Shown in pieces: positions 2,446 through 53,273 of a stretch of DNA of 64,000 bases. This DNA comes from Squalus acanthias. Taxonomy: Eukaryota. The position numbers and the translations under genes are program-made. The stretch covers positions 33,232,001-33,296,000 of the forward strand of contig CM059449.1 of NCBI GenBank assembly GCA_030390025.1, read 5' to 3'. A model generated the notes under the pieces. The model made no database searches and had not been told where the DNA came from. It was given only the letters and a program-made list of their open reading frames with translations. Positions within the stretch are counted from its first letter, which is position 1; each line of letters opens with the position of its first letter.

Positions 2446-2497
2446 CAGGAACCACCTGTTGAAAAAAGTAAAGGCTCAGTAAAACAAAGAGGAACAT
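2446..2497 (-). CDS. Probable signal-peptide (leader) exon 1, MFLFVLLSLYFFQQVVP+G, phase-1 intron; rest of gene not found in window; possibly MHC class I-like or another IgSF gene
   Basis: Minus strand aaacATG TTC CTC TTT GTT TTA CTG AGC CTT TAC TTT TTT CAA CAG GTG GTT CCT G|GTAAGT: 52 nt, hydrophobic core, consensus donor, promoter motifs directly upstream. Confidence 0.6.
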
Positions 2498-2554
2498 GTT
2501 TCAGCGAGTCGCTCAGTTAAAACCCTGCACAGCAAGACGGGAAGGTTTTGTAGA

Positions 2555-6300: not shown

Positions 6301-6660
6301 CCACAAAGACATTGATCCCAGCACTGCTGAGGTGTAACCCGTCCACCTTTAATAGGCTCCCCCTGCCTCAGAACTGGTTCCACTGCCTCTGGAATCTGAA
6401 GTCCTCCATCCAGCATCATTTTTCACACCATGTGTTAACCTGTCTTATCCTACTATTATTATACTCACTAGCACTGTGGCACTGGAGGAATCCAAAGATA
6501 ACTACCTTTCAGGTCCGGCTCTTTAATTTTCTTCTGAGCTCTGAAACTCTGTCTGCAGGACCTCAGCCCTTTTCCTTCCTGCGCCATTGGTTCCCACATG
6601 GACCATTACATCTGGCTGTTCCCCTTCCCCGCTCAAAATGTTCTGCACCCTCTCAGTGAT
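3375..6660 (-). mobile_element. Degenerate, nearly full-span CR1 LINE (3' UTR, RT, endonuclease, ORF1 esterase end)
   Basis: ORF fragments VDVVYMDF...GVPQGTVLGPLLF...KFADDTK (4150-4584), GVYYRPPNS...MGDINFP (5660-5860), DGLHL-type ORF1 end near 6270-6350; CR1 tail at ~3375. Confidence 0.9.
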
Positions 6661-6661
6661 G

Positions 6662-7875
6662 TACCCGCCTTAGTTCCGTAACCGTTAATAACCTTGCCTA
6701 ACAAAAATCTATCAATCTCAGTTTTGTCATTTTCAATTGACCCCTAGCCTCAACAGCATTTATGTGGAGACAGTTCCAGATTGCCACTAATCTTCATGTG
6801 AAGAAGTGCTTTCTGAACTTCGCCCCTGAATGGTCTAGCTCTAATTTTAATGTTATGCCACCTTGTTCAATACTCCCACCAGGTGAAATAGTTTCTCTCT
6901 ATCTACCCTGTCAAATCATTTAATCATCTTAAACACCTCAGTTAGATCACCCGTTAATCTTTTATGGTCAAGGGAACACAAACCGAGTCTATGCAACCTC
7001 TCCTCATAAAGTAATTCTTTTTTGCTTCGTTATCATTCTGGAGAATCTGCATTGAATCCCCACCAAGGCTAAGATATCCTTTCTGAGGTGCGGTGCCCAG
7101 AAGTAAACGCAATACTCCAGATGGAGTCCAACCAGAGTTCTGTACAGCTGGAACATAACTTCCCCCCTTTGTATTCCATCCCTGTTGAGATAAAGGCCAA
7201 CATTCCATTAGCTTTTAAAAATATATATTCTACCTGTCCATTAGCACTTAGTCATTTCAGTACTTGGATCCCTAAATCTCTCTGCTCATCCACAATTCCA
7301 AGCTTCTCGATCTCTGATCTCTCTTATTTAGATCCAAAGTGGATGGCCTCACATTTCCTCAATTTGATGTCCACCTGCCACAGTTTTTCCCACTAACTTA
7401 ATCTATCAATGTCCCTTTGCAGCTTTCTGCTCCCATCCACACAATTTACTGTGTGAAATAACTTGGTGTCATCAGCAAGCATGGATATATGACTCTCTAT
7501 TCCTTCGTCCAAATCATTTATAATTATAATGAAAATCTGAGGCCCCACTTGTCACATCCTACCAATTTGTGTACAGATCCAATATCTCTAGTCTCCGTCT
7601 TCTACCTCCTATTCAATTCTCTAGCCAACCCAATAGGATGCCTCCAATTCGGTGCACTTTCATTTTTGTTACCAGTCTACTTTGTGGAACCTTGTCGAAT
7701 GCCTTCTGGAAGTCCATATCAATAACATCCATAGGCAATCCCTTACCTACCATGTTAGTTACCTCCTCACATAATTCACCCAGCCTCATTAGACATGACT
7801 CACCATTTACAAATCCATGCTGGCTCTCTTTGATCAGCTCATATTAGTCCAGATACTCAATCAGTCTGTATCCGA
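6662..7875 (-). mobile_element. Degenerate CR1 LINE ORF2 fragment (RT and C-terminal region)
   Basis: Reverse-complement similarity to the intact CR1 ORF2 at 36001-38499 (QHGFVNG, DFQKAFDKV regions). Confidence 0.85.
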
Positions 7876-9995: not shown

Positions 9996-12900
9996 GAGGG
10001 GGTGGGAGAGAGAGTAGTGCAGGGGAGTAACAGTGTGGAGAGGTGACGGAGTGGACAGAGTGGAGGGGGGAGTGAGAGAGTGTACGGTGGAGGGAGAGTG
10101 GAGAGGTGGAGTGGGAGAGTGGAGGGGAGGGGAGAGTGGAGAGGTGGAGTAGGAGAGTGGAGGGGACGGGTGACAGGAGAGAGTGGAGGGGAGGGAGAGA
10201 GTGCAGGGGAGGGACAGTGTGGAGTGGAGGGAGAGAGGAGTGGGAGAATGTAGAAGGGAGGGTGAGAATGGAGGTAAGGTGAGGGGAGAAGGAGGGAGAC
10301 GGAGAGGGAGAGATTGGAGAGGGCATGGAGGGGAGAGGGAGGGGTGGGAAAGAGCGGAGCAGAGGGGGAGGGAGAGAGCTGAGTGTAGGGGAGGAACAGA
10401 GTGGAGTGGTGAGGAAGGGGAGAGGGAGCTGGCGGGAACAGAGTGGAGTGCAGGGGACGGAAAGAGTGGAGAGGGAAGGGAGGGGAGGGGGAGCGGGAGA
10501 GTAGAGAGGGGAGGGATGGAGAGGGAGAGGGAGGGAGAGAGCGGAGGGTAGGGGAGGAACAGTGTGTACAGGGGAGGGAGAGGGAAAGTGAGGGCAGGGA
10601 AGTGAGTGGAGGTTTGTGGAGGGTCGGAGTGGAGAGTGGAGGGAGGGGAGAGGGAGGGGGAGGGAAGACAGTGGAAGGTGGGAGAGAGTGGTGAGGGGAA
10701 GGAGGGAAAGGTAGGAAGAGTGCGGGAGTCGAGGGTAGGGGAGGGACAGAGTGGAGATGGGAGTGTAGGGTAGGGAGAGGGTGGGAGAGGGCGGAGGATA
10801 TGGGGGCAACAGAGTGGAGAGTGGATGGAGGGGAAGGACACAGTGGATAGGGGAGGGAAGGGAGGATAAGGGAAGAGAGTAGAGGGTAGGAGAGAGTGGA
10901 GAGGGAAGGTAGGGGAAAGGGAGGGGGAGGGAGAGAGTGGAGGGATGGGAAGTACAGAGTGGAATGTGGAGGAAGGGGACTGAGGGAGAGGGAGAGAGTG
11001 GAGAGTGGGAGAGAGTGGAGAGGGGAGGGAGCGCAGAGGGAGGGTGAGGGAGCGAGTGGGGGTTGGAGGGGGGAGAGAGTGGTGACAGTAGGGAGGGGAG
11101 AGGGAGAAGGAGGGAATTGAGTGGCGGGGAGCGGAGCCAGAGATTGGAGAGTGGAGGGAGGGGTTAGGGAGTGTGAGGGAAATTGTGGAGGGTGGGAGAG
11201 AGTGGAGAGGGGAGAGATGGGAGTGGGATGGGTGGGAGAGAGTGGAGGGGAGGGAGAGAGCAGAGGGGAGGGAGAGAGTGGAGTGGAGGGTGGGAAAGAG
11301 TGGAGCAGAGGGTTAGAGTGGAGGGGAGGGAGAGAGTTGAGTGGTGGAGAGAGTGGAGGTGTGGGAGAGACTCGAGGGGGGAGAGAAGAAGGGAAGAGGA
11401 GAGTGAAGGGAGGGTGACAGAGGAGAGGAGGAGTGGGAGAGTGAAGAGGGAGGGGGAGGGGTGCCAAAGTGGAGGGGATGGAGAGACTCCAGGGGAGAGT
11501 GCGGAAGGAAAGGGGAGAGTGACGTGAGGGAGAGACAGGAGAGGAGGAGGGCAGAGTAGAGAGGTGGAGTGTGAGAGTGGAGGGGAGGGGAGAGTGGAGG
11601 GGGAGGGAGACAGTTGAGGGGGGAGTGGGGGGGAGGGAGAGAGTGGAGGGGGAGGGAGAGCGTGGAGGGGGAGGGGAGAAAGTGGAAGGAGGAGGGAGAG
11701 AATGGAGGTGGGTAATAGATTGGAGAGGTGGATTGGGAGATTGGCAGGGAGGGGAAAGAGGAGAGATGGAGTGGGAGTGTGGAGGGGAGGGGAGAGTGGA
11801 GACGTTGATTTGGAAATTGGAGGGGAGGGGAGAGTAGAGTGGTGGAGTGGAGAGTGGAGGGGTGGGGAGAGTGGAGGGGGAGAGAGGGCGTGGAGAGGTA
11901 GAGTTGGAGAGTGGAGCGCAGGGGAGAGGGGAGAGGCGAGGGAGATAGAGGAGAGGGGATGGTACAGTAGAGGGGAGGGGAGAGTGGAGAGCGAGGCAGA
12001 GAGTGGAGATGTGGAGTAGGAGAGTGGAGAGGAGGGGTGACAGGAGAGAGTGGAGGGGAGGGAGAGAGTGGAGGGGAGGGAGAGAGTGGAGGGGACAGGA
12101 AAGTGTGGAGTGGAGAGAGAGAGTGGAGGGGAAGGTCAGGGACAGATTGGAGAGGGAAGGGAGAGGGTTTGAGGGGTAGGGAGACAGTGGAGGGTAGGGT
12201 AGGGACAGGGTGGAAAGGGGAGGGAGGGGAAAGGGAGGAGGAGGGAAGTGAGTGAAGAGTAGGGGAGGAACAGATTGGAGAGGGCATGGGGTGGAGCGGG
12301 AGGAGGTGGGAAGAGAGTGGAGGGTGTGAGAGTGTTGAGAGGGGTGGGAGGGGAAAGGGAGGGAGAGAGCGGAGGGTAGGGGTGGAACAGAATGGAGGGG
12401 GGAAAGGAGGGAGGAGAGTGGAGGAAAGGGGTGGGACAGCGTTTTGAATGGAGGGAGGGGAGGCTGAGGGCAGAGAGTGGAGGTTCGGAGAGAGTGGAGA
12501 GGGGAGCGAGGGGAAGGGAGGGGGAGGGAGTGAGTGGAGGGTACGTGAGAGATGAGTGGAGAGTGGCGGGAGGGGAAAGGGAGCGGGAGGGAAGAGAGTA
12601 GAAGGTAGGGGAAGGACAGAGTGGTGTGGGAAGGGAGGGGAGAGTGACGGGGAGGGAGAGATTGGAGTGTGGGAGAGAGTGAAGAGGGGAGGGAGGGGAG
12701 AGGGAGAGCGAGGGAGAGACTGGAGGGTGGGGGAGGGACAGAGAGGAGACTGGAGGGAGGGGAGCAGGAGAGGGTGACAGTGGATAGGGGAGGGAGGGAA
12801 GAGGGAGAGGCTGGAAAGAGAGTGGATGGGAGGGGAGGGACCAAATGGAGGGGAGGGGGAGGGAGAGAGCAGAATGTAGGTGAGGAACAGTGTGGAGAGG

Positions 12901-15900
12901 GTAGGGAGGGGAGAGAGTGGAGGCAGGAGGGAGGCAGTGGAGAGGGCAGGGAGAGTGGAGAGGTAAAGTGGGAGAGTGGAGGGTAGAGGAGAGCGTAGAG
13001 CTGGAGTGGGAGAGAGGAGGGGAGGGGAGAGTGGAGGGGGAGAGAGAGAGTGGAGTGGAGGGTGGGAAAGAGTGGAGCAGAGGGTTAGAGTGGAGGGGAG
13101 GGAGAGAGTTTAGGGGTGGAGAGAGTGGAGGTGTGGGAGAGACTCGAGGGGAGAGAGAAGAAGGGAAGAGGAGAGTGAAGGGAGGGTGACAGAGGAGAGG
13201 AGGAGTGGGAGAGTGAAGAGGGAGGGGGAGGGGTGCCAAAGTGGAGGGGATGGATAGACTCCAGGGGAGAGTGCGGAAGGGAAGGGGAGAGTGACGTGAG
13301 GGAGAGACAGGAGAGGAGGAGGGCAGAGTAGAGAGGTGGAGTGTGAGAGTGGAGGGGAGGGGAGAGTGGAGGGGGAGGGAGACAGTTGAGGGGGGTGTGG
13401 GGGGAGGGAGAGAGTGGAGGGGGAGGGAGAGCGTGGAGGGGGAGGGGAGAAAGTGGAAGGAGGAGGGAGAGAATGGAGGTGGGTAATAGATTGGAGAGGT
13501 GGATTGGGAGATTGGCAGGGAGGGGAAAGAGGAGAGATGGAGTGGGAGTGTGGAGGGGAGGGGAGAGTGGAGACGTTGATTTGGAAATTGGAGGGGAGGG
13601 GAGAGTAGAGTGGTGGAGTGGAGAGTGGAGGGGTGGGGAGAGTGGAGGGGGAGAGAGGGCGTGGAGAGGTAGAGTTGGAGAGTGGAGCGCAGGGGAGAGG
13701 GGAGAGGCGAGGGAGATAGAGGATAGGGGATGGTACAGTGGAGGGGAGGGGAGAGTGGATAGCGAGGCAGAGAGTGGAGATGTGGAGTAGGAGAGTGGAG
13801 AAGAGGGGTGACAGGAGAGAGTGGAGGGGAGGGAGAGAGTGGAGGGGAGGGAGAGAGTGGAGGGGCAGGAAAGTGTGGAGTGGAGAGAGAGAGTGGAGGG
13901 GAAGGTCAGGGACAGATTGGAGAGGGAAGGGAGAGGGTTTGAGGGGTAGGGAGACTGTGTAGGGTAGGGTAGGGACAGGGTGGAAAGGGGAGGGAGGGGA
14001 AAGGGAGGAGGAGGGAAGTGAGTGAAGAGTAGGGGAGGAACAGATTGGAGAGGGCATGGGGTGGAGCGGGAGGAGGTGGGAAGAGAGTGGAGGGTGTGAG
14101 AGTGTTGAGAGGGGTGGGAGGGGAAAGGGAGAGAGAGAGCGGAGGGTAGTGGTGGAACAGACTGGAGGAGGGAAAGGAGGGAGGAGAGTGGAGGTAAGGG
14201 GTGGGACAGCGTGGTGAATGGAGGGAGGGGAGGCTGAGGGCAGAGAGTGGAGGTTCGGAGAGAGTGGAGAGGGGAGCGAGGGGAAGGGAGGGGGAGGGAG
14301 TGAGTGGAGGGTACGTGAGAGATGAGTGCAGAGTGGCGGGAGGGGAAAGGGAGCGGGTGGGAAGAGAGTGGAAGGTAGGGGAAGGACAGAGTGGTGTGGG
14401 AAGGGAGGGGAGAGTGACGGGGAGGGAGAGATTGGAGTGTGGGAGAGAGTGAAGAGGGGAGGGAGGGGAGAGGGAGAGGCTGGAAAGAGAGGGGGTGGGA
14501 GGGGAGGGACCAAATGGAGGGGAGGGGGAGGGAGAGAGCAGAATGTAGGTGAGGAACAGTGTGGAAAGGGTAGGGAGGGGAGAGAGTGGAGGCAGGAGGG
14601 AGGCAGTGGAGAGGGCAGGGAGAGTGGAGAGGTAAAGTGGGAGAGTGGATGGTAGAGGAGAGCGTAGAGCTGGAGTGGGAGAGAGGAGGGGAGGGGAGAG
14701 TGGAGGGGGAGAGAGAGAGTGGAGGGGAGGGAAAGAGTGGATGGGGGAGGGAGTGAGTGGATGGGAGATTGGAAAGGTGGAATGGGAAAGTGGAGGGGAG
14801 GGGAGATTGGAGGAGAGGAAGAGAGTGGAGAGGTGGAGTTGAAGAGTGGAGTGGAGGAGAGAGTGGAGAGGGGTGTGAGAGAGTGGAGGGGGAGGGAGAG
14901 AGTGGAGGGTGGGAGAGTGTGGAGAGGGTAGGGAGGGGAGAGGGAGGGGTGGGACAGTGCGGACGGAGGGGTAAGGAGGGAGCTGAGTGCAGGGGAGGAA
15001 CAGAGTGGAGAGGTGTGGGAGGGGAGAGGGAGGTGGAGGGAAGATGGTGGATTGCAGGGGACGAACAGAGTGGAGAGGGAAGGGAGGGGAGGGGGTGGGA
15101 GTGAGTGGAGAGGGGAGGGACGGGGAGGGTGAGGGAGGGACAGAGCGGAGGGTAGGGGAGGGACAGAGTGGAGAGTGGAGGGAGGGGAGAGGGAGGGGAG
15201 GGAAGAGAGTGGAGGGTGGGAGAGAGTGGAGAGGGGAGGGAGGGAAAGGGTAGGAAGTGTGAGCGAGTCGAGGGTAGTGGAGCGACAGAGCGGAGAGGGG
15301 AGAGTGGGGGAGGGAGAGGGAGGGAGAGTGCGGAGGATATGGGGGGAACAGAGTGGAGAGGGGAGGGAGGGGGAGGACAGAGTGGATAGGTGAGGGAAGG
15401 GAGGGTAAGGTAAGAGATTAGAGGGTGGGAGAGAGTGGAAAGGGGAGGGAGGGGAAAGGGAGGGGGAGGGAGAGAGTGGAGAGTATGGGAGGGACAGAGT
15501 GGAGAGGGGAAGGAGGGGAAAGGGAGGGGTAGGGAAGGGAGCGTTGTGGAGGGGAGGCACAGAGTGGAATGCGGAAGGAGGGAAGTGAGGGACAGGGAGA
15601 GAGTGGAGGGTGGGAAAGAGTGGAGAGGGGAGGGAGGGGAGAGGGAGGGTTAGGGAGAGTGTTGAGAGTGGAGTAGGAGAGTGGAAGGGAGGGAGAGAGT
15701 GGGGGGAGGGAGAGAGTGGAGGGGAGGGAGAGTGTGGAGGGGAGGGAGATAGTGGAGGGGAGAGAGAGTGTAGGGGAAGGGAGAGTGTGGAGTGGTGGAG
15801 TAGGAGAGTGGAGGGAAGGGAGTGAGTGAAGGGGCGGCGGAGAATGGAGGGGAGGGAGAGGGAGGGAGAAAGTGGAGGGTGGGGTAGAGTTGAGAGGGCA

Positions 15901-18900
15901 GGGATAGGAGAGGGAGAGGAGTGAAAGAGCAGAGGGGTGGGGGAGGGGGAGAGCGGAGGATAGGGGAGGAACAGAGTGGAGAGGGGAGGGAGCGGAGAGG
16001 GAGTGGGAGGGAGCGAGTGGAGGGTGGGAGAGGATGGAAAGGTGCAGGAGAAATTGCAGACGGTGGAGTTGGGGAGTGGAGGGATGGAAGGGAGAATGGT
16101 GTGTAGAAGCGAGTGGAGGGGAGAGAGAGAGTGGAGGGGAGGGAGAGAGTGGAGGGGAGGAGAGAGAGGAGTGGAGGGAGAGAGTGGAGGGGATGGAGAG
16201 AGTGGAGGGGAGGGAGAGAGTGTAGTGGAGGGAGAGAGTGGAGGGGAGAGAGAGAGTGGAGGGGAGGGAGAGAGTGGAGGGGAGGAGAGAGAGGAGTGGA
16301 GGGAGAGAGTGGAGGGGAGGGAGAGAGTGGAGGGGAGGGAGAGAGTGTAGTGGAGGGAGAGAGTGGAGGGGCGGGAGAGGGTGGCGGGGAGAGACAGAGT
16401 GGAGGGCAGGAAGAGCATGGAAGTGTGCGAGAGACTCGAGGGGGAAGAGCCAAAGGGAAGTGCAAAGTGAAGAGAGGGAGAGAGAGGAGAGGAGGAGGAG
16501 GAGAGTGAAGAGGGATGGGGGAGAGTGGAGATGTGGGAGAGTGGAGGGGAGGGAGAGACTCAAGGTGGGTGTGCGGAAGGGAAGGTGAGAGTGAAGGGAG
16601 GGAGAGTAGGAGATCTGGAGGGGAGAGTGGAAAGGTTGAGTGGGAGATTGGAGGGGGAGGTAGAGAATGGAGGGGGAGGGAGAGTGGAGGGGGAGGGAGA
16701 GTGGAGAGGTGGAATGGGAGACTGCAGGGGCGGGGAGAGTGGAGAGGTGGAGTGGGAGAGTGGAGGGGAGGGGAGCGTGGAGGGGGAGGGAGAGAGTGGA
16801 GTGGGGGGAGTGAGAGATTGTAAGGGAGGGAGAGAGTGGAGTGGAGGGAGGTAGAGAGTGGAGTGGAGGGAGGGAGAGAGTGGAGGGGAGGGAGAGAGCA
16901 GAGGGGAGGGAGGGAGTGGTGTGGAGGGAGGGAAAAAGTTGAGCAGAGGGTTAGAGTGGAGGGGAGGGAGAGAGTGGGGGGGTGGGAGTGAGTGGAGGTG
17001 TGGGAGAGACTCAAGGGGAGAGCAGAAGGGAAGAGGAGAGTGAAGGGAGGGAGAGAGATGAGAGGAGGAGGGGGAGAGTAAAGAGGGGAGGGGGAGGGGT
17101 GCGAGAGTGGAGGGGATGGAGAGACTCCAGGGGGGAGTGCGGAAGGGAAGAGGAGAGTGAAGTGAGGAAGAGACAGGAGAGGAGAAGGGGTGAGTAGAGA
17201 GGTGGAGTGGAGAGTGGAGGGGAGGAGAGAGTGGAGGGGGAGTGAGACAGTTGAGGGGAAGCGAGTGCAGGGGGTGGGATAGAGTGGAGGGGGGAGGGTG
17301 AGAGTGGAGGGGGAAGGGGAGAGAGTGGATGGAGGAGGGAGAGATGGAGATGTAATGGAGAGTGGAGAGGTGGATTGGGACATTGGAGGGGAGGGAAGAG
17401 CGGAGAGGTGGAGTGGGAGAGTTGAGCGGAGGGGAGAGTGGAGAGGTGGATTGGGCGATTGGTGGGGAGGGGAGAGTGGAGAGGTGGAGTGGGAGAGTGA
17501 AGGGGAGGGCAGAGTGGAGGGGGAGGGAGAGAGTGGAGAGGTGGAGTTGGAGAGTGGAGTGGAGGGGAGAGGGGAGAGGCGAGGGAGATAGTAGATAGGG
17601 GATGGGAGAGTGGAGGGGAGGGGAGTGTGGAGGGTGTGGAAGAGACTGGAGATGTGGACTAGGAGAGTGGAGAGCAGGGGTGTCATGAGAGAGTGGAGCG
17701 AAGGGAGAGAGTGGAGGGGAGGGAGAGCGTGGAGAGGAGGGAGAGAGTGGAGGGTAGGGAAAGTTTGGAGTCGAGAGAGAGAGTGGAAGGGAGCGGAGGG
17801 ATTGATTGGAGATGGGAGGGAGGGGGATGAAGGGGGAGGGAGACAGAGAATAGTAGGGGAGGGACAGAGTGGAAAGGGGAGGCAGGGGAAAGGGAGGGGA
17901 GGGAAGAGAGTAGAGAGTAGGGGAGGAACAGATTGTAGATGGCATGGGGTGGAGCGGGAGCAGGAGGGAAGAGAGTAACGGTGGGAGAGTGTTGAGAGGG
18001 GTGGGAGGGGAAAGGGAGGAAGAGGGAAAGAGAGGAGGGTAGGGGAGGGAAAGTATGGAGAGGGGAGGAAGGGGGAGGGAAGAGAGTGGAGGGAAGGGTA
18101 GGGACAGAGTGGCGAGGGGAGGGAGGGGAGGGTGAGGAAAGAGATTGGAGGGTCAGTGAGAGTGGAGAGGGGTGGGAGGGGAAAAAGAGCGGTAGGGAAG
18201 AGTGTGGAATGTAGAGGGTGGGCAGAGTGGTGTGGGGAGGGAGGGGAGAGTGAGGTGAAGGGAGAGAGTGGAGTGTGGCAGAGGGTGGCGAGGTGAGGGA
18301 GTGGAGAGGGAGGGCGAGGGAGAGACTGGAGGGTGAAGGAGGGACAGAGAGGAGACGGGAGGGAGGGGAGAGGGAAGTGGTGAGAGTGGATCTGGGAGGG
18401 AAGGAAGAGGGAGAGGGAGGAAAGAGAGTGGAGGGGAGGGGAGGGACAGAGTGGAGGGGAGGGACAGAAAGAGAGCAGAGAGCAGGGGGAGGGCAACAGC
18501 GGAGGGGGGTGGGAGAGTGGAGAGATGGAGTGGGAGAGTGGAGGGGAGAGGAAAGTGGAGAGCTGCAGTGGGAGAGTGGAGGGGAGGGGAGAGTGTAGGG
18601 GAGGAACAGTGTGGAGAGGGGAGGAAGGGGAGAGAGTGGAGGCAGGAGGGAGACAGTGGAGAGGGGAGGGAGAGTCGAGAGATGGAGCAGGAGAGTGGAG
18701 GGGAGAGGAGAGTGGAGAGCTGGAGTGGAGAGCTGGAGTGGGAGCGAGTAGGGGAGGGGAGAGTGGAGGGGGAGGGAGAGAGTGGATGGGAGATTGGAGA
18801 GGTGGAATGGGAGAGTCGAGGAGCGGGAAGATTCAAGGGGACGGAGACAGTGGAAAGGTTGAGTGGGAGAGTGGAGGGGAGGAGAGAGTGGAGGGGCGAG

Positions 18901-21172
18901 GGAGAGAGTGGAGGGGAAGGGTTAGAGTATCGGGGGAGGGAGAGAGTGGAGGGGGGAGGGAGAGGAACGATGGGAAGTTTTAAAGTGGAGGGGGAGGGAG
19001 AGAGTGGAGGAGGGAGGGAGAGAGTGGATGGGAAGGGTTGGAGTGGAGGGGGGAGGGAGAGTGTGGATGGGGATAGAGAGAGTGGAGGGGGCGGGAGAGT
19101 GGAGAGGTGGAGTGGGAGAGTGGGGTGGAGGGGATAGTGGTGACATGGAGTGGGAGAGTGGAGGGGAGGGGAGCGTGGAGGGGGTGGGAGAGAGTGGAGT
19201 GGAGGGAGTGAGAGAGTGGAGGGGAAGAAGAGAGTGGAGGGGGAGGGAGAGTGGAGAGGTGGAGTGGGAGAGTGGAGGGGAGCGTGGAGGGGGAGGGAGA
19301 GAGTGGAGCGGAGGGAATGAGAGATTGTAAGGGAGGGAGAGAGTGGAGTGGAGCGAATGATAGAGTGGAGGGGACGGAGTGAGTTGAGGGGAGGGAGAGA
19401 CTCGAGGGGGAGTGCAGAATGGAAGAGGAGAGTGAAGGGATGGACTGGAAGGAGAGGAGGAGGGGGAGATTAAAGAGGGGAGGGGGAGAGTGGCGTGGTG
19501 GTAGAGTGGAGGGGAGGCAGATACTCCAGGGGGGAATGCAGAAGGGAAGGGGAAAGTGAAGTGAGGGAGAGAGAGGAGAGGAGGACTGGAGAGTGGAGAG
19601 GTGGAGTGGGAAAGTGGACGGGAGGAGAGAGTGGAGGGGTAGGTAGACAGTTGAGGGGGAGGGTCAGAGTGGAGGGGGGAGGGAGAGTGTGGAGGGGAGG
19701 GAGCGAGTGGAGGGGGAGGGGAGAGAGTGGAGGGAGGAGGGAGAGTGTGGAGGAAGGAGGGAGAGAGTGGAGGGCGATGGAGAGTGGACAGTTGGATTGG
19801 GAGATTGGGGGGCAGAGGTGGGGGGAGAGGTGGAGTGGTAGAGTGGAGTGGAGGGGAGCGGGGAGAGTGGAGAGGGACGGAGAGAAGGAGAGTGAGGGAG
19901 TGAGTTGAGAGGTGGAGTGGAAGAGTGGAGGGGACGGGAGAGGGGATTGTGGAGGGCGAGAGAGAGTTTAGATTGGAAGTAGAGATTGGAGAGTGGAGGG
20001 GAGGGGAGAGGGGGAAGGGGATGGAGAGATTGGAGGGGGTGGGAGAGAGTGGGGGGGGAGCGAGAGTAGAGAGGTGGAATGGGGGAGTGGAGGGGAGGGG
20101 AGAATGGAGTGGTGGAGAGGGAGAGTGGAGGGGAGGTGAGAAGGGAGTGTTGGAGTGGGAGAGTGGAGCGGAGGGGAGAGTGGAGGGGGGAGATTGGAGA
20201 GGTGGAGTGGGAGAGCGGACGGAAGGGGAGAGGGGACAGTGCAGGGAGAGATTTGAGAGGTGGAGTTGGAGTGTGGAGGGGAGGGGAGAGGGGACAGTGG
20301 AGGGAGAGATTTGAGAGGTGGAGTTGGAGGGTGGAGGTGAGGGGAGAGGGGACAGTGGAGGGAGAGATTTGAGAAGTGGAGTTAGAGGGTGGAGGGGCGG
20401 GGAGAGGGAGAGGGGAGAGAGAGAGTGGATAGTGGATGGGAGAGTGGTGGTAACAGAGGGAGTGGAGCGTGAGGAAAGAGAGTGCAGCGGAGGGGAGGGG
20501 AGAATGGTGGGAGAGTGGGGGAGGTAGAAAGTTGAGAGGGAGGGAGAATTGGGGTGAGGGAGAGGGTGGAGGGAGAGGGAGTGAATGGGGAGGTGACAGA
20601 TTTGAGGGGAAGGGAGTGGAGGGGAGGGGAGGGAGTGAGCGCAGAGGGAGGGGTCGGGGATGTTTGGTGGGAGGGGAAGGGAGTTCATTGAGTGAGGACG
20701 GGGAGAGTGTTGAGAGGGAGGGAGAGAGTTTCAGGAGGGAGAGGAAGCAGAGGGGAGGGAGAGAGTGGTTTGGAGGGAGAGATTGGAGGGGAAGGAGTGG
20801 GAGGGGAGGAAAAGAGCGGAGGGGCGTGAGAGAGTGGATGGGGTGGGGACAGATTGGATGGGAGGGAGAGGAGGAGAGCGAGGGGAGGGGTCAGAGGGGA
20901 GGGAAGGGTGGGGAGTGGAAGAGTGTGGGGGGAGGGCAGGGAGAGAGAAGTGGGGAGGGGAAGAGGAGTTGGAGGCAGCTGGCAGAGAGTGGAAGGGATG
21001 GGAGGAGGAGAATGGAGGGTAAGAGTGGAGGGGAGAGAGAGTGGAGGAAGCGGAGTGAGGGGGAAAGATTAGAAAAGGGAGGGAAAGGGAGTGAGGGGAG
21101 AGAATGGAGTGGGGAGGGAGGCAGCGGAGTGGAGGGGACAAGGAGAGAACAGGAAGAGAGTGGATGGGAAGA
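9996..21172 (+). repeat. 11.2-kb polypurine (G/A-rich, GGAGAGTGGAGGGGAG-like) complex satellite with internal kb-scale duplications
   Basis: Very C-poor plus strand; landmark strings recur at offsets of about 1770 bp (e.g. GACGTTGATTTGGAAATTGG at 11801 and 13572). Confidence 0.95.
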
Positions 21173-21844: not shown

Positions 21845-23190
21845 CTCTCATTCTCATCTCTCTCTCTCTCTTTCTTTCTACCTGTGTCTTTGACTCGTTT
21901 CCTTCATCTTTCTCGCTCTCCGTGCCTGTCTCTCTTTCTTTTTATCTCTCTCACTCCCCCTGTCTTTCCCTATCTCTGTTCTTGTCTCTCTCGCACTCTC
22001 TGTCTCTCCTTCGCTCTGTCTCTGTCTCGGTCTCTCTTGCCCTCTCTCTCTCTGTCTGTCACTCTCTCTGTCTGTCCCTCTCTCTCTCTGTGTCTCTCTT
22101 TACCTCTCTCTATGTATCCTGTATCTCTTTATCCATATCTCTCTGACTCTCGCTGTCTCTCTCTATCTCTGTGGTTGTCTACATATCTCTCTCTGTCTCT
22201 TTTTACATCGCTCTCTCTCTCTGTCTGTCTCTCTGTGCCTCTCTCACTGTGTCTTGTCTCTCTGTCGCACTCTTTCGCTGTCACTCTTTCCCTCTCTTTG
22301 TCTCTGTCTCTCTTTACCTCTCTCTCTCTTTGACTGTCTATTTTTCCCTCTCTGTCTCTTTCCTTCTCTCTCTCTTTCACTCTCTTTCTCTGTCTCTCTT
22401 TCCCTTTCTCTCTCTCTCTGTCTATCTCTCTTTCGCTCTCTTTCTCTGTCTGCCTTTCCCTTTCTTTATCTCTCTCTTTCCCTCTCTCTATGTCTCTCTT
22501 TCACTCTCTCTCGCTCTGTCTCTCTTTCGCTCCCTTTCTGTCTCCCTTTCCCTCTCTCTCTCTCTGTCTCTCCGTACCTCTCTCTCTCTCTCTCTCTGTC
22601 TCTCTTCACTCTCTCTCTATGTACCTGTCTCTCTTTCTCTTTGTCTCTCTCACTCTCCCTGTCTTTCGCTATCTCTGTTCTTGTCACTCTCTCTCTCTGT
22701 CTCTGTCTCTCTTTCCCCCTCTCTCTGTCTCAGTCTCTCTTTCCCTCTCTCTCGGTCACTGTCTCTCTTTACCTCTTTTTCTCTGTCTCGCTTTCCCTCT
22801 CTCTCTCTGTCTCTCTTTACCTCTCTCTCTCTCTCTGTCTTTCTTCCCCTCTATCTGTGTGAATCTTTTATTCCCTCTATCTGTGTGTCTGTCTCTCTTT
22901 CGCTCTCTCTCTCTAGCTCCCTTTATGTCTCTCTGTGCGTCTGTCTCTCTTTCACTCTCTTTCTCTGTCTGTCTTTCCCTCTTTTTCTCTGTCTCTCTAT
23001 CCCTCTCTCTGTGTCTCTCTTTCGGTCTCTTTCTCTGCCTCTCTTTCCCTTTCTCTCTTTCTCTGTCTCTCTTTCCCTCTCTCTCTCCATCTCTGTCTGT
23101 CTGTCTTTCACTTGCTCTCTCTATGACTGTCTCTCTTTCGCTCCCTTCCTATGTCTCGCTTTCCCTCTCTCCCGCTCTCTCTCTCTCTCT
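21845..23190 (+). repeat. 1.3-kb polypyrimidine (CT/CTGT-rich) low-complexity tract
   Basis: Degenerate (CT)n/(CTGT)n composition with internal block repeats. Confidence 0.95.
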
Positions 23191-27265: not shown

Positions 27266-27734
27266 TTCTCCAGGGGAAATTGGTCTTGGGCCCAGCGCAA
27301 AACATGTGATGGTGAAGTGACTGCAAAACATTTAATTTAAGTGGCATGAAGTGGGGTTTCCAAAAATTAGTAAATTATATATTGCAACCTGTATACTTCT
27401 AGCGTTTGATAATCAAGTGAAATGTTTTGAATTGTAATTCTTCTACTGAATTCAAAGTTGGCAATTGGGAAACAGGCGTCTGATCCGAACTCACCCCGTT
27501 CCCGCCGGTTTAGGTTAAACATACCCTCACACGTTCTCCTTCCTTTAATTCATCATCTGAAAGCAATATATGTCAGAAGGACGTAGATAATTATGAACAC
27601 AGATTTGTATACTCAGGCTTCGTCTGATATTCTATCCTGCTCATCAACTTCCTGATATGTAATTTGTTTGCCCCTATCTATAGCAACAGTGACCCTGGAT
27701 ATTATGACAGTGATTCTGTGGGGAGACAAGAGAA

Positions 27735-28107
27735 GCTATGATTGTTCTACTTCGAGTAGAGATGGTTAAGCTGTAATAGACATGATCAAAATCATGAAGG
27801 GTTTTGACAGAGTAAACAAGGAGCAACAGTTTCCAATGAGAGAAGGGTCATGTAACCAAAGGACTCAGATTTATGGTAGTTGGCAAAAGAACCACAAGTG
27901 AGATGAGGAGAGTTTATTTTACGCAGTGAGTTGTTGTGATCTGGCATGCACTGCATGAAAGGGTGGTGGAAGCAGATTCAATTATAACTTTCAAACGGGA
28001 AATGTATAAATACTTGAAGGGAAGAGAATTGCAGGCTTTGGGGAAAAAGCAGGCGATTGGGACTAATTCAATAGCTCTTTCAAAGAGCCGGCACAGGTTA
28101 GATTGAC
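27735..28107 (+). mobile_element. CR1 LINE 3' fragment, cut off at the candidate LTR
   Basis: KIMKGFDRV and FTQ.VV.IW similarity followed by 3' UTR GCTCTTTCAAAGAGCCGGCACAGG. Confidence 0.8.
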
Positions 28108-29737
28108 TGTGAGGGGATAATTACAACTCCTAGCGCTTTCGGACTACCCCAGATCAGGCGTATTCCCAAGACGTTTACCTTCAACTAAAGTTAGCTGTAG
28201 CCGGATCCTATAAGACGCTTAATTGGGCCTGGAGGTCACACTACCTCTCCCTAAAGGAAAGAAACGGCCTGAAGATGCTATCATCCTCCGGATAGCACTT
28301 TTAACAAGTTTAACTAGACTGCAATCTTCCGGATATTATGAGGGTACGGAAAACCCCCAGAATTCTGCTACTCCTCCCTGAAGAGTGTACAGAAATTGAG
28401 TTTGTGAGATTGATACAGAAATACTCTTTGAGACAATTTTAAAAATATATAGATTTATTAAAGAACCGACATCTAGTTAACAGCTGGTATGGCAATCGCA
28501 ACTTTAACCGTTCAAAATACAGATAGATTACATTTCTTATCAAAGATCCTCATTCTCAAATCTTAACTTCGTTACATTTCCACACTTCTACTTATTTCTT
28601 AATCCAGAATATCCACCAAAATCAAATATCTTGATTACCCGAGTCTCAGAGTTGAAAACTTACAGAGCGTGCCTGTGAAGTTGAGAAATGCTTGCCCTTC
28701 CAGCGACTTCTCACTTTTCATCTGACAAGCTCTTATTTTTATACACTTTTTTAGTGGTACTTTCTTTGAAGTTTCCTGCTGATGTAAGCTAATTATCTTT
28801 AGTGATTCTTTATTGAATTATTTTCTATTCTTACTGTCATTTCAGCTGCCAACTTTTAGGATTATTTTTTTACCTTTAGGTGTTTCAAAAACTATCATTA
28901 AATGGTTATTGTCGATTTATCTTTTTAATGCCATTCTTAGGAAGTCTTTCTATTGAATTCTTAATATCACTTAACTGCTTGTACGCCAGACGTCGTGACT
29001 CTGTGGTGTTCCACGTTCAATACAAACGCAATGTAATTGTTTGATGTCATCTATTGATATTATATTTCCAAAGCCTCTCTGTAGGTATATTTTACAACTT
29101 GTAAATTGAAAACACTTCTCTTAGGGTGTTTACTTGTTTTCTTGCTATCTCAATTGGTTACATATTTAATCGTGTTTCCTGTTTCTAAGTTTAACATAAA
29201 ACTATTTTATGGGAGGTATTTCTTTTACTTGATGTCATTTTTTCAAAGGCACTAGGTTTTTTAATGTTCTGTGCACCTGTTTGACGTGTTAGATTTTAAC
29301 ACTTTACTTGGGCATTGCTATTGTTTTGTTCCAAATTCTAGACATTCTGGAAGCACCAATGGTTTGCTTCAATAGGGGCTTTGTCTCTGTATTTACAAAC
29401 AATTTCCCATTTCAAAGCTTGTTTTCACAGCTTTGTGTTAACAAACCATCTTATCTGCGAAGCCTGTATTGTGCCTGCAGCCTGTGTCGCCGAGGCTTTT
29501 CCAGACTTTTAAACACAGTATGTCTTGTATTAATAATATAAAAAATCTCTTTATAGGATTGAGTATTTTTCTGAAATATGGCTATTCCATTACAACTGAA
29601 TGACCTCCTCCTATGCAGTAAGCTTCCATTATTGTTCACGTCATGAATTTCGTTGTGCTATTGATTATGTACATTTTAGCTCATCTCAGATTATATCTGA
29701 CGGTGTCCCAATGGTGTGACACAGTGCTTACCTGACA
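28108..29737 (-). mobile_element. Candidate solo LTR (1630 bp) with spumavirus-like U3-R-U5 layout
   Basis: TG...CA ends with imperfect inverted repeat (TGTGAGG / CCTGACA); flanks TGAC and TAAC (3/4 TSD match); minus-strand TATAAAAA (28743-28736), splice donor GTAAGT (28663) and AATAAA (28459-28454). Confidence 0.55.
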
Positions 29738-35795: not shown

Positions 35796-38732
35796 GGCTG
35801 CATGGTGACAATGCCTGGGAATTAAACATACCAGGTTATTTAACGATCAGGAAGGACAGGCAGGAAGGAAGGGGAGGTGGGGTGGCTATGTTAATAAAGG
35901 AAGGAATCACTGTAATACAGAGTAATGATATTGGGTCAAAAAATCATGATAATGAAACAGTTTGGGTGGAGATAAGGAATAATAAGGGGAAAAAACACTA
36001 GTGGGCGTAGTCTATAGGCCTCCGAACAGTTGCAACTCTGTTGGACGGAGTATCAATCAGGAAATAGTTGAGGCATGTAATAAGGGAACATCTATAATTA
36101 TGGGGGATTTTAACTATCATATTAATTGGACAAATCAAATGGGGCAGGGCTGCCTTGAGGATGAGTTCATTGAGTGTATTAGGGATGGGTTTCTTGAGCA
36201 GTATGTAACTGAACCGACCAGGGGGCAAGCAACCTTAGATCTGGTCCTGTGTAACGAGACAGGATTAATTAAAAATGTCCTAGTAAAGGATCCCCTTGGA
36301 ATGAGTGACCATAACATGGTTGAATTCCATATTCAATTAGAGGGTGAGAAGGTTGGATCTCAAACAAGCGTGCTAAGCTTGAATAAAGGAGACTATGAAG
36401 GTATGCGAGCGGAATTGAGTAGAGTGGATTGGGAAAATAGATTAAAGGGTAAGACGACACATGATCAGTGGTGTACATTCAAGGAGTTATTTTACAACTT
36501 CCAAAAAAAATATATTCCACTGAAAAGAAAAGGGTGTAAAAGAAAGGACAGTCATCCGTGGCTAAGTAAAGAAATTAAGGATAGTATTCGACTAAAAACA
36601 AGGGCATATAAGGTAGCGAAATCTAGTGGGAGGACAGAGGATTGGGAAAACTTTAAAAGGCAGCAAAAAATAACAAAAAGATTGATTAAGAAAGGGAAGA
36701 TAGATTATGAAAGTAAATTAGCAAAAAATATAAAAACAGATAGTAAGAGTTTTTATAGTTATATAAAAAGAAAAAGGGTGGCTAAAGTAAATGTTGGTCC
36801 CTTAGAGGATGAGACCGGGAAATTAATGGTGGGAAATATGGAGATGGCAAAAACACTGAATGAATATTTTGTATCAGTCTTTACAGTAGAGGACACTAAG
36901 AATATCCCAACACTGGACAAACAGGGGGCTATAGGGGGAGAGGAGCTAAACACGATCAAAATCACTAAGGAAGTGGTACTCGGTAAAATAATGGGACTCA
37001 AGGCGGATAAATCACCTGGACCTGATGGCTTACATCCTAGAGTCTTGAAGGAAGTGGCGGTAGGGATTGTAGATGCATTGGTAATAATTTTTCAAAACTC
37101 CCTGGATTCCGCTAAGGTCCCGGCAGACTGGAAAACTGCTAATGTAACACCCTTATTTAAAAAGGGCAGTAGACAGAAGGCTGGTAACTATAGACCGGTT
37201 AGCCTAACATCTGTGGTAGGTAAAATTTTGGAGGCCATTATTAAGGAAACAGTAACAGGACATTTGGATAATCATAATTTAATAGGACAAAGTCAGCATG
37301 GTTTTACGAAGGGGAAGTCATGTTTGACAAATTTGCTGGAGTTCTTTGAGGAAGTAACATATAGAGTGGATAAAGGGGAACCAGTGGACGTAGTGTATTT
37401 AGACTTCCAAAAGGCATTTGACAAGGTGCCACACAAAAGATTATTGCTTAAGGTAAAAAATCACGGGATTGGGGGTAATATTCTGGCATGGATAGAGGAT
37501 TGGCTATCTAACAGAAAGCAAAGAGTTGGGATAAATGGTTCATTCTCAGACTGGCAATCAGTAACTAGTGGTGTTCCGCAGGGGTCAGTGCTGGGTCCCC
37601 AACTCTTTACAATCTATATTAACGATTTGGAGGAAGGGACCAAGTGTAACATATCAAAATTTGCAGATGATACAAAGATGGGAGGGAAAGTAGTGAGTGA
37701 GGAGGACATAAAAAACCTGCAAGGGGACATAGACAGGCTAAGTAAGTGGGCAGAGATTTGGCAGATGGAATACAACACTGGAAAGTGTGAGGTGATGCAC
37801 TTTGGCAGGAAAAATCCTAGAGCAATTTATTATCTTAATGGCAAGAAACTGGAGAGTACTGAAGTGCAAAGGGATCTGGGGGTCCTGGTGCACGAAACTC
37901 AAAAGGTTAGTATGCAGGTGCAGCAAGTGATTAAGAAGGCAAATGGAATGTTGGCTTTCATTGCTAGGGGGATAGAATATAAAAATAGGGAGGTATTGCT
38001 TCAGTTGTACAAGGTATTGGTGAGACCGCACCTGGAATACTGCATACAGTTTTGGTGTCCTTACTTAAGGAAAGACATCCTTGCTCTCGAGGCAGTGCAA
38101 AAAAGGTTCACTCGGTTAATCCCGGGGATGAGGGGGTGGTCATATGAGGAGAGGTTGGGTAGATTGGGACTCTACTCATTGGAGTTCAGAAGAATGAGAG
38201 GCGATCTTATTGAAACATATAAGATTGTGAAGGGGTTGGATCGGGTGGATGCGGGGAGGATGTTCCCGATGACGGGTGAGACTAGAACTAGGGGACATAG
38301 TCTTAGAATAAGGGGCTGCTCTTTCAAAACTGAGATGAGGAGGAACTACTTCACTCAGAGGGTGGTAGGTCCATGGAATATGCTGCCACAAAAAGCTGTA
38401 GAAGCTACATCATTAAATAAATTTAAAACAGAAATAGACAGTTTCCTAGAAGTAAAGGGCATTAAGGGTTACGGGGAGCGGGCAGGAATTTGGACATGAG
38501 TCTAGGTTCGGATCGGTCATGGCCCTGTGGGTAGTGGAGCGGGCCCAGGGACCGTGTAGCCGGATTCTGCTCCTATTTCGTGTGTGCAATTCTGTTAGAT
38601 GCAGGAGATGGTTCTATGATAGATAGTAGATTGGCGGTTAGGATCAGATCAGCCATGATCTTATTGAATGGCGGAGCAGGCTCGAGGGGCCGATTGGCCT
38701 ACTCCTGCTCCTATTTCTTATGTTCTTATGTT
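35796..38732 (+). mobile_element. Young 5'-truncated CR1 LINE with near-intact ORF2 and 7-bp TSD
   Basis: CTAAAAT at 35789-35795 and 38733-38739; TTCTTATG-repeat tail. Confidence 0.95.
36001..38499 (+). CDS. CR1 ORF2 (partial APE endonuclease plus reverse transcriptase), 832 aa open; endonuclease sequence continues upstream to ~35796 across a 1-nt frameshift in an A-run near 35990
   Basis: YRPP, MGDFN, SDH endonuclease motifs; KSPGPDG, NYRPVSL, QHGF, DFQKAFDKV, GVPQGSVLGP and FADD RT motifs. Confidence 0.95.
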   Translation: MGVVYRPPNSCNSVGRSINQEIVEACNKGTSIIMGDFNYHINWTNQMGQGCLEDEFIECIRDGFLEQYVTEPTRGQATLDLVLCNETGLIKNVLVKDPLGMSDHNMVEFHIQLEGEKVGSQTSVLSLNKGDYEGMRAELSRVDWENRLKGKTTHDQWCTFKELFYNFQKKYIPLKRKGCKRKDSHPWLSKEIKDSIRLKTRAYKVAKSSGRTEDWENFKRQQKITKRLIKKGKIDYESKLAKNIKTDSKSFYSYIKRKRVAKVNVGPLEDETGKLMVGNMEMAKTLNEYFVSVFTVEDTKNIPTLDKQGAIGGEELNTIKITKEVVLGKIMGLKADKSPGPDGLHPRVLKEVAVGIVDALVIIFQNSLDSAKVPADWKTANVTPLFKKGSRQKAGNYRPVSLTSVVGKILEAIIKETVTGHLDNHNLIGQSQHGFTKGKSCLTNLLEFFEEVTYRVDKGEPVDVVYLDFQKAFDKVPHKRLLLKVKNHGIGGNILAWIEDWLSNRKQRVGINGSFSDWQSVTSGVPQGSVLGPQLFTIYINDLEEGTKCNISKFADDTKMGGKVVSEEDIKNLQGDIDRLSKWAEIWQMEYNTGKCEVMHFGRKNPRAIYYLNGKKLESTEVQRDLGVLVHETQKVSMQVQQVIKKANGMLAFIARGIEYKNREVLLQLYKVLVRPHLEYCIQFWCPYLRKDILALEAVQKRFTRLIPGMRGWSYEERLGRLGLYSLEFRRMRGDLIETYKIVKGLDRVDAGRMFPMTGETRTRGHSLRIRGCSFKTEMRRNYFTQRVVGPWNMLPQKAVEATSLNKFKTEIDSFLEVKGIKGYGERAGIWT

Positions 38733-50611: not shown

Positions 50612-53273
50612 ATGGGTCCACCAATCCTTGCCCAGATTGAAGCGGTTTACTACCCGATTCTCGCAGTGTTTGGTGTTCCTGGTAAGTCATTACCATCAGT
50701 TGTCAATGTCACTCGGGGTTTACCTGTATCACTGCTCTAGTTGATTCTGTGAGATGTTTGTTTTCACGTGCTTGTTTCTACTGGGATAAATTAAATGTCA
50801 CGACCTTCTACTGAAACCTTAATGCAATAACGTCACAGAAATTCAGAGGGAAGCTACAATTGTCTCTGCAGTTTCAGCACCAACAATTTTAACAACTTTC
50901 ACCACAGTCTCGCAGTACTGGGGGTGGAATAGATCTTCGGCAGCAGCTCGAGACCGGCTCATAGCGAATCCGAACCTGTTTCACTCCGCGCCCAATTTCT
51001 TTCCCATTGAAATAAAATGAAAAGTAATTCGGGCGCGGTCTGAATGTGCTGCCAATTCACTATCGCCAGTTTAGCGCTACCGTCGGAGACCAAATTCACC
51101 CAGAGTCAAAAAAGAAGAAACTGGCAGGGAGAGAGAGAGAGAGAGAAAGATAGAGAGCGACAGAGTCAGAAATATAAAAAGAGATTAAACAAAAGAGGCA
51201 GAAAAGGAAGAATCAAAGAGACAGAGGGTATACTGAACTTTGCTCGCCAGGTGTAAAACTGGTGCTCGCGAGCTGACAGCTTGTTTGAAAACTCGCTGGA
51301 TTATTTTTCCATTTGCTTCAAAGGACTTTGGTTTTGCTCCCGGACTAGGAATCCAGAGACATGGACCAATGTTCTAAAAATCGTGTGTTCAAACCCACCA
51401 TGGCTGATCGAGAATGTGAATTCAGTTAAAAAATACATGGATATAAAAATAAATGTAGCATTCATAAATTGACCAGGATTAATAAAGAGCCAACTGATTC
51501 ACTAATATCCTTTAGAGAAGGAGCTTGCCGTCCTGAGCCATCTGGCTTTTACGTGACTCCAGTCCCACAACAACTGCCCTCTGAAGTGGTCTAGCAAGTC
51601 ACTGAGGGCAACTAGGGATGGGCAATAAATGCCGGCCTTGCCCGCGATGCTTACATCCTGCAACTCAAGTAAAATATACACATTAAAGATAACTGTGCTT
51701 TAACCATTGAATTATTGTTTTCTCTCTATTGCCACGTCTCGCGGTCTGCCAACTTATGCCTGAACCTCGGGCTTCCTTTCTTTACATAATTGACTGTTTC
51801 TTCTTAGTCCACTTTTCCTTCACCCTGGCCAAGATGGATAACGGGTTGAGATGCCTTCTGAGACTCTCCAAAGAATCTCAGAATCCTTGACCCCTATTCT
51901 TACACTCCCTTTTAATGTTCCCATCCCTTTTATTTGAATTCTACCACTTTGCCTTCTCCAAAACCCGTCCCAGTTTGCAGCTCAAGCTGTGCTAGTGAGT
52001 AGACCTGGGAGTTAAGAGCGCACTTCAGGTTAATACTGTACATTAAACCCTCCCTCATAGCCATTCTGGCCTAAGATACCCTGATAGAAAAATGCCAGCT
52101 GAAGAGAGACAGAGACAGAGAGAGAGATGATTAGAGCGACACATAAATAAACTAAGACATAGAGAGAGGCAGGAGAAAGGCAGATCGTGAGCAACACAGA
52201 GGGATGGTCAGAATCAGTGACAGATATAGAAATACAGAGTCCGAGAGAGAGCATGAGTTGAGTAGTAGAAAATATGTGCTGAAATTTGATAAACTGTCAT
52301 TACCTGCCGGCCATTTTGTTTTGACTATAATGATTAATTTAATTTTCCCTCTTTTATTGCAGCGAATTTATTCACAATTGTAATTCTCTCCCGTGGAAAG
52401 TGTGGTCTCTCCACATGTATCACTCGTTACCTGGTGGCCATGGCAGCAGCAGATCTACTGGTCCTGATATTTGATGTAATTCTGTATGAGATTCAGCAGA
52501 TTTATTTCCCACATTCATTCCTGAACTACACTCTGATCTGCAGTCTCAATCTCACACTGATATTTGCTGCCATTGATTGTTCCATCTGGTTAACAGTCGC
52601 CTTCACCTTTGATCGATTCATCGCCATTAGTTGCCACAAGCTGAGAGTCAAATATTGCACCGAAAAAACTGCGGCTTTGATTATAACAACGGTGTGTGGG
52701 TTGAGCTGTTTACTAAACATTCCAGTTTACTTTGTAAACGAGTCTGGTGAAATAATTGATAACATACAATGGTTCTGTGTTGTAAAATCTGCCTGCTACA
52801 CCTTGCCCATTTGGATAGCTTACTTCTGGTTTCGCAATATTTTAACCCCTTTCGCTCCATTTGTGTTGATTGCACTGCTCAATGCGCTGACCATCAGGCA
52901 CATTGCACAGGCCAGTAGAGTCAGGAGGGGACTCCGAGGGAGTATGACGGGTGAGAGTCACAAAGATCCAGAGATGGAGAACCGAAGGAAATCCATCATT
53001 TTACTGCTCGCAATTTCAGGCAGTTTTATCCTGCTATGGGTAGTAAGTTTCCTCTATGAAATATGCATAAAATTTACAGATACTTATTTTTTCCGAACAG
53101 ATTACGCAGATCCTTTTACCGTCATGGAACACAGTGGATATATGCTCCAGCGTTTGAGTTCCTGCACCAACACGGTTATTTATGTAGTGGCCCAGACGAA
53201 ATTCAGAGATACGATAAAGAATGTGATTAAATTTCCCTTTGCTCAGATGATTAAGTTAATTAAATTAAATTAA
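50612..53273 (+). CDS. GPR139/GPR142-like orphan class A GPCR, two exons (50612-50681 and 52363-53273), 326 aa
   Basis: Exon 1 MGPPILAQIEAVYYPILAVFGVP+G|GTAAGT; acceptor TTTTATTGCAG; exon 2 NLFTIVILSRGKCGLSTCITRYLVAMAAADLL...SIWLTVAFTFDRFIAI...DPEMENRRKSIILL...SSCTNTVIY. The join is in frame (70+911 nt) and gives seven hydrophobic segments. Confidence 0.92.
50921..51101. mobile_element. Palindromic MITE in the GPCR intron
   Basis: GGGTGGAAT / AAATTCACCC ends; internal CCGCGCCCAATT...AATTCGGGCGCGG inverted repeat as in the 24152 element. Confidence 0.7.
51325..51665 (+). mobile_element. tRNA-derived SINE in the GPCR intron
   Basis: B-box-like GTTCAAACCC (~51387); tail GGGCAACTAGGGATGGGCAATAAATGCCGGCCTTGCC. 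Confidence 0.65.

Follow-up and report, generated by a model that had tools for sequence, protein, structure and literature searches.

The 64,000-nt stretch of Squalus acanthias DNA analyzed here (hereafter the window) contains at positions 28110-29594, on the minus strand, the solo long terminal repeat (LTR) of what is almost certainly a foamy-like endogenous retrovirus (ERV). As an LTR it is nothing out of the ordinary, being one among thousands and belonging to a known kind. Taken as a whole, we consider it quite probable that a high-copy foamy-like family is represented here, which spread inside cells without env and likely produced its Pol as a readthrough Gag-Pol fusion.

Element Boundaries and Insertion Site

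A sequence-only reading of the window had described a long non-coding LTR, read on the minus strand, that interrupts the 3′ tail of a CR1 LINE. This description holds, and the element is multi-copy, while the ends given there, 28108 and 29737, disagree with the copy boundaries. A search of the own 3.7-Gb, CR1-rich genome with this 1630-bp block, in which 40 of 4,987 candidates were scored, yielded 41 matches; independent copies match element positions 3 to about 1487 only, setting the LTR to 28110-29594 with a length of 1485 bp. The former ends were dropped, the additional 143 bp being the CR1 tail right of the LTR plus flanking DNA up to 29737. Two matches spanning positions 1-1630 arose by segmental duplication of the entire locus, with flanks of 95.8-97.5% and LTRs of 97.3-97.6% identity; since these duplicates share the LTR together with its flanks, the insertion is older than the duplications. 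Contig C26 carries three copies of the surroundings of the LTR (window locus, L002, and L003), which are about 96-97.5% identical.

With the corrected ends, the LTR has TG...CA termini and is flanked by the target-site duplication (TSD) ACTG at 28106-28109 and 29595-29598 (plus strand). The proposed TSD length of 4 bp was therefore right, its 3/4 match (TGAC/TAAC) giving way to a perfect ACTG/ACTG; the 6/7 terminal inverted repeat turned out to be a chance resemblance absent from the element, whose true ends have TG/CA in common. A scripted comparison of 27 other loci (L004-L030) found an exact 4-bp duplication at 17 and one with a single mismatch at two, an exact 5- or 6-bp duplication at none of the 27, and eight unscorable loci (5′-end variants, insertions, and one proviral LTR). 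The portion of the CR1 3′ end left of the insertion (27713-28109, plus strand) matches CR1-type tails at other loci. It is interrupted at 28109 and continues at 29596 with the remainder of the same tail (29596-29633, plus strand), both flanks matching adjacent positions (643-752 and 765-802) in L012. The TG...CA ends, the short TSD, and the presence of the same sequence bounding an internal region elsewhere characterize a solo LTR, which would have formed through LTR-LTR recombination of a provirus residing in the CR1 tail.

Elsewhere in the window, an 11-kb degenerate purine-rich (G/A) tandem array (10048-21047) is followed by a CT-rich array (21926-23190), and an 837-codon open frame at 35986-38499 has the appearance of a CR1-type LINE polymerase. 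A 311-codon open frame at 52338-53273 apparently encodes a single-exon seven-helix receptor, presumably GPR139-like.

Anatomy of the LTR

On the minus strand, the TATA box TATAAAAA (28736-28743), the candidate splice donor GTAAGT within the predicted R region (28658-28663), and the poly(A) signal AATAAA (28454-28459) begin at 28743, 28663, and 28459, exactly where the sequence-only reading had located them. Among these motifs, the poly(A) signal shows the best conservation across copies (31/31 close and 36/37 distant alignments; 99.6th percentile of LTR 6-mers), followed by TATAAA (30/32 and 25/31) and the donor (25/31 and 22/33; 82nd percentile). GTAAGT lies 80 nt downstream of the TATA start, and the spacings of about 80 and 205 nt are repeated in several env-less subfamilies. 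The TATA-donor-poly(A) order, a pattern chosen after the fact, also appeared in 19 of 1,000 dinucleotide shuffles. As judged from the TATA position, the predicted U3 (28714-29594, minus strand) measures about 880 nt once the ends are corrected, instead of the ~1 kb suggested before; the predicted U5 (28110-28438, minus strand), delimited by the poly(A) signal and the LTR end, comprises about 330 nt. From the CRE-like motifs reported earlier, ACGTCA (29287) and both copies of TGACATCA (29042-29049 and 29230-29237, minus strand), putative sites which we take to be CRE/AP1-like, are situated within the LTR, while TGACGT near 29640 falls outside.

In foamy viruses, the major splice donor is located about 50 nt into R. 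The motif proposed as such a donor is indeed present in the window LTR, but carries less weight than originally claimed, being replaced by non-consensus GTAGTG, GTAGTC, or GCGGTC in all four env-bearing LTRs examined. Great LTR length, likewise put forward as a foamy trait, was dropped as a mark, as one env-bearing copy has an LTR of only 1069 bp with its TATA at LTR position about 410; for the same reason, the long U3 of the window LTR looks like a later trait of its subfamily. Contigs of seven out of eight listed runs, whose RNA origin is a guess, cover the LTR and internal parts of copies L031 and L092, none of the listed joints or loose ends being placed at the donor. The contigs of two runs from different studies (X2 and X5) both skip 993 gag bases (L092:914-1908), a gap of the same size as a deletion in genomic copies.

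Proviral Relatives and Family Identity

Copies with paired LTRs, which the sequence-only reading had recommended to look for, were found. Provirus L031 is composed of LTR, primer binding site (PBS; TGGCGCCCAACGTG, starting two bases past the 5′ LTR), internal region, polypurine tract (PPT) with a GGGGG|TG junction, and a second LTR, flanked by an ATCT duplication. We assume TGGCGCCCAACGTG to represent a tRNA-Lys PBS. The family thereby displays the tRNA-Lys PBS, GGGTG PPT-LTR junction, and 4-bp TSD of FLERV and ERV-Spuma elements, the three features listed as marks of foamy-like fish ERVs (PMC5210030, section 3.4). Neither RT nor env nor central gag is present in L031, whose entire 3.6-kb interior is matched by six further copies. 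For its integrase (IN), the score was 137 bits with foamy IN compared to 31 with HIV IN; the RT supplied by related copies, carrying YVDD, reached 288 bits against foamy RT compared with 119 for Ty3 and 105 for the MLV type. Family RT is 46-52% identical to named foamy Pol. Within family copies, three Pfam models exceeded their cut-offs, i.e., Gag_FV_central (PF20672; 50 bits, cut-off 30), Spuma_A9PTase (PF03539; 26 bits, cut-off 21), and Foamy_virus_ENV (PF03408; 59 and 36 bits, cut-off 27), and no CCHC motif (Cys-His box) was found in the 525-codon gag. Gag without Cys-His box, A9 protease, and Env hence are of the Spumaretrovirinae type.

The RT tree was calculated from a 34-row subset of 95 rows, leaving out 61 near-duplicates or extra outgroups and dropping P0011 and P0023 as too short; a quick 95-row tree gave the same foamy grouping. 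The family groups with mammalian foamy viruses (eight foamy rows) at 100/98 and is joined by a second lineage of the same genome (L105/L106) at 91/91. Five teleost-type or unnamed rows, not proven to be FLERVs, are sister (100/98) to the clade of family and foamy viruses. Class-I-like and Gypsy-like rows, the latter unnamed and identified by their Pfam content, are placed outside at 100/98 and 100/100 in this tree, which includes neither a BEL row nor a named lokiretrovirus. An integrase protein search for longer relatives and a search for relatives in viral contigs and metagenome contigs returned none. A gene model of Scyliorhinus torazame (P0038) contains a foamy-like RT piece (52% identical) fused to PR/SET-type Pfam domains and may be a misannotated insertion.

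That the LTR instead derives from a Gypsy, BEL, class I ERV, or lokiretrovirus element is extremely improbable. The 4-bp TSD and Lys PBS also occur outside foamy viruses (PMC5210030, section 3.4), and an in-frame gag-stop-pol arrangement is, according to the accessible parts of PMC8278194 and PMC13517186, typical of gamma/epsilon viruses and the class III element XtERV-S. Against such an origin stand the three spumavirus-specific Pfam domains above cut-off, an RT and IN much nearer to foamy viruses than to Ty3, MLV, or HIV, and the exclusion of the class-I-like and Gypsy-like rows from the foamy grouping, a named lokiretrovirus not being among the rows. A grouping of the RT with Metaviridae or Belpaoviridae, as expected of Ty3/Gypsy or BEL members, was not found, and the foamy Gag, protease, and Env hits would argue against a lokiretrovirus as source of the family, lokiretroviruses being characterized by a non-foamy Env and an RT placed as sister to all retroviruses sampled (PMC7947760). 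The original assignment to a foamy-like ERV rather than Gypsy or BEL is consequently borne out by the Lys PBS, TSD, integrase, RT, Pfam hits, and RT tree.

Copy Number, env Loss, and Probable Germ-Line Spread

Exact LTR 3′ ends number at least 4,716 genome-wide (control 6) and matches to the LTR end plus PBS at least 95, the two values originating from different patterns and each being a lower bound. The 5′ 22-mer of the window LTR subfamily occurs 263 times. The env TM region was detected at 7 loci (36/36 candidates scored) versus 142 RT matches, and env SU/TM in none of nine fetched RT-bearing family copies. In an alignment of 24 rows, one being the query itself and two uninformative, 14 env-less copies run unbroken over the point where env-bearing copies break; most copies have one env deletion in common.

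Selection was assessed among 31 env-less copies by comparing variants common to at least three copies with singletons. Omega amounted to 0.27 for shared variants versus 0.81 for singletons in PR-RT (p 7e-7), 0.19 versus 1.01 in connection-RH (p 6e-4), and 0.30 versus 1.03 in IN (p 3e-5). The env remnant showed no depletion of amino acid changes (1.04 versus 0.78, p 0.79), the purifying signal in gag was not significant (p 0.14-0.54), and an off-frame control gave 1.16. Purifying selection is observed on pol only. Based on the common env deletion in conjunction with this selection, amplification by retrotransposition within germ-line cells from an env-deleted founder is very probable. An env-bearing foamy-like virus would have entered the germ line, where one copy would have lost most of its env and the descendants likely multiplied by retrotransposition within cells. 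Gag- and RT-deleted derivatives, the kind bearing the window LTR type, were likely copied in trans, solo LTRs arising by recombination.

A window-type solo LTR is nested in pol of an env-bearing copy (L055:4094-5532), and nested LTRs are likewise seen in other copies; by virtue of this nesting, the window-type LTR is the younger one. Eight LTR pairs differ by 2.3-4.8%, corresponding to 23-48 Myr at the rate given in the accessible text of PMC10699275 and to 53-110 Myr at that of PMC4422223.

The gag-pol Junction

The gag ATG is in frame with the junction codon at a distance of 525 codons, and pro-pol continues in the same frame. Counted by eye among 100 listed of 143 genome matches, the junction codon is TGA in 80, TGG in 16, TGC in three, and TAA in one. 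CGA and CAA were absent from these listed matches, by which CpG decay was ruled out as source of the TGA. Among the fetched copies covering the junction, 23 of 32 read TGA, these 23 including the oldest (basal) subfamily and the single env-bearing copy, out of seven, with a preserved junction. Sense codons at this position have been propagated, TGG mostly within one clade (support 97) and TCA in a pair (99). Several members of the TGG sub-clade (L072, L074, L079, and related copies) also exhibit a central gag deletion, the combination of both leaving a shortened Gag segment that reads in frame into Pol.

The protease Asp is positioned 29 codons beyond the TGA. Between stop and Asp, an in-frame ATG is absent from 27 of 32 copies and occurs in the other five at four different places, whereas named foamy Pol starts with a Met 20-24 residues ahead of the Asp in 8/8 cases. 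In Spumaretrovirinae, pol is read in a different frame from gag and begins at a separate start codon. This arrangement was not found in the family, the frame being shared and no ATG conserved; because of this, we file the family as foamy-like and not as a canonical spumaretrovirus. The junction context is UGAAGG. A 9-pair hairpin directly following the TGA did not reach significance, with z between -1.4 and -1.9 over 30 nt and between about 0 and -0.8 over 100 nt, and is closer to the stop than the known readthrough stimulators, which start at +12 to +16 according to the available portion of PMC13517186. The 600 nt preceding the junction contain a single AG with a pyrimidine tract, at -419.

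A second, distant foamy-like provirus is present as a single copy (L105/L106 at G000:C10, near 78.18 Mb), its RT being 47% identical to family RT and sitting on a long branch of the RT tree (91/91 with the family). It has a perfect foamy-type PBS (TGGCGCCCAACGTGGGG) and LTRs that are 99.7% alike (2 differences in 968 aligned bases). A 572-codon frame in gag position, TGA-CTAG, and a 1148-codon pol frame follow each other, all in frame, with the protease Asp as the sixth codon past the stop; UGA-CUA is the Sindbis readthrough context, as described in the accessible part of PMC13517186. The env position is occupied by frames of 708 and 109 codons, accompanied by two further frames of 333 and 108 codons. 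The gag- and env-position frames gave no match to foamy Pfam models or to solved structures, and the 333- and 108-codon frames had no Pfam or PDB match, the 333-aa frame also lacking a usable Atlas hit.

Comparison with Known Elements

In common with mammalian foamy viruses (PFV/SFV, FFV, and EFV), the family possesses the Lys PBS, GGGTG PPT-LTR junction, 4-bp TSD, YVDD RT, A9-type protease, Gag central domain without Cys-His box, and foamy-type Env, as well as a long LTR with TATA, candidate donor, and poly(A) signal in equal order. In contrast, its gag and pol share one frame over a TGA with no Met before the protease Asp, it comprises thousands of endogenous, mostly env-less LTRs, and no long ORF succeeds env in its degraded env-bearing copies (a gap to the 3′ LTR of about 0.5-0.7 kb in the five examined). 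Between env and the 3′ LTR, Spumaretrovirinae have the accessory genes tas/bet; their further hallmarks are an internal promoter, late reverse transcription, budding that depends on Env, and Pol packaging that depends on RNA.

Foamy-like ERVs of cartilaginous fish are already known from the accessible texts on elephant shark (CmiFLERVs, PMC5512871) and small-spotted catshark (ERV-Spuma.0-Sca, PMC10699275); with shark elements published, the window LTR is not a new kind. Compared by description, all of these are endogenous foamy-like elements of cartilaginous fish with ages of tens of Myr. ERV-Spuma.0-Sca likewise has its gag (1538-3796) and pol (3920-6865) annotated in one frame (PMC10699275 Table S4), whereas its 866-bp LTRs and reported grouping with ray-finned fish elements set it apart. 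Terms for readthrough or splicing are absent from the accessible main texts of PMC5512871 and PMC10699275. The FLERVs of ray-finned fish (AciFLERV and DrFV), as portrayed in the available parts of PMC5210030 and PMC5512871, share the Lys PBS in most cases, the GGGTG junction, and the 4-nt TSD, but differ by large genomes, accessory genes, and Gag and Env without foamy homology. In the RT tree, the unnamed teleost rows are not part of the clade formed by the family and mammalian foamy viruses; two of these rows apparently possess a Met of their own. A single in-frame UGA between gag and pol is also found in XtERV-S (class III; PMC8278194), SSSV, and ZFERV (PMC13517186), with SSSV UGAAGA and frog ERV UGAAGU resembling the UGAAGG of the family according to the accessible part of PMC13517186; by Gag, Env, or Pol, these elements are not foamy.

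Synthesis of Pol

The junction is most simply read as a readthrough site. With one frame across a single TGA and no conserved start codon before the protease Asp, the gene layout suggests that Pol is probably made as a Gag-Pol fusion, ribosomes passing the in-frame TGA. This would be unlike mammalian foamy viruses, in which Pol is derived from a spliced RNA and not from Gag-Pol, as stated in the accessible parts of PMC9143442 and PMC7828637. Counting against readthrough are the single env-bearing witness, the insignificant hairpin close to the stop, the in-frame ATG of five copies between stop and Asp, the propagated sense codons, a Gag without significant purifying signal (expected of a cis-acting Gag), and, regarding L105/L106, its single copy, its gag and env frames without foamy match, and its long branch.

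The canonical foamy route, i.e., a spliced RNA from the R-region donor with a non-AUG start or an AUG in a short upstream exon and the TGA as plain gag stop, is unlikely. It is in line with the splicing of pol in all mammalian foamy viruses (accessible parts of PMC9143442 and PMC7828637), with GTAAGT 80 nt past the TATA being retained in env-less subfamilies, where no env remains for it to splice, and with two teleost foamy-like gene models (P0004 and P0005) whose Met starts precede the Asp by 23 and 32 residues. It is opposed by the missing conserved ATG from stop to Asp, the lone pyrimidine-tract AG at -419, and the description of spumavirus pol in a frame other than gag (PMC8278194, accessible part); furthermore, the protease N-terminus of L105/L106 must be encoded upstream of the stop, so splicing alone yields no protease. 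Even less probable is an ancestor with a continuous gag-pol frame or a nearby frameshift, in which case the TGA would be a nonsense change spread by defective copies. While the propagated TGG and TCA codons fit this scenario and the single-copy L105/L106 offers no sisters to compare its TGA with, the TGA is present in the basal subfamily and the env-bearing copy, CpG decay does not account for it among the listed matches, pol is under purifying selection in TGA-bearing lineages, and the L105/L106 stop is set in a leaky CTAG context between LTRs differing at merely 2/968 positions.

Provided that Pol is made by readthrough, we lean toward the view that the spliced, Gag-independent Pol of Spumaretrovirinae is not universal in the foamy clade, in which an env-less retrotransposon family thrived. 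For this case, a later origin of spliced Pol is a possible but less favored version, the alternative being that it was given up in this branch. If the Met starts of P0004 and P0005 are real, readthrough would be a reversal and not ancestral, gene-model starts being unreliable. We found no literature report of readthrough in a foamy-like virus, start/stop maps in the figures and Supplementary Note 1 of PMC5512871 possibly having a bearing on it. The accessible texts of PMC5210030, PMC5512871, PMC3386198, PMC12690878, PMC7947760, PMC10699275, and bioRxiv 2020.12.18.423569, the supplements of this preprint possibly being relevant as well, contained nothing on foamy-like viruses under readthrough terms.

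The common env deletion and the selection on pol depict a foamy-type element multiplying without an envelope. In parallel, two distant foamy-like lineages of one genome, both arranged as gag-UGA-pol, provide a short, testable junction for the question of when Gag-independent Pol arose.
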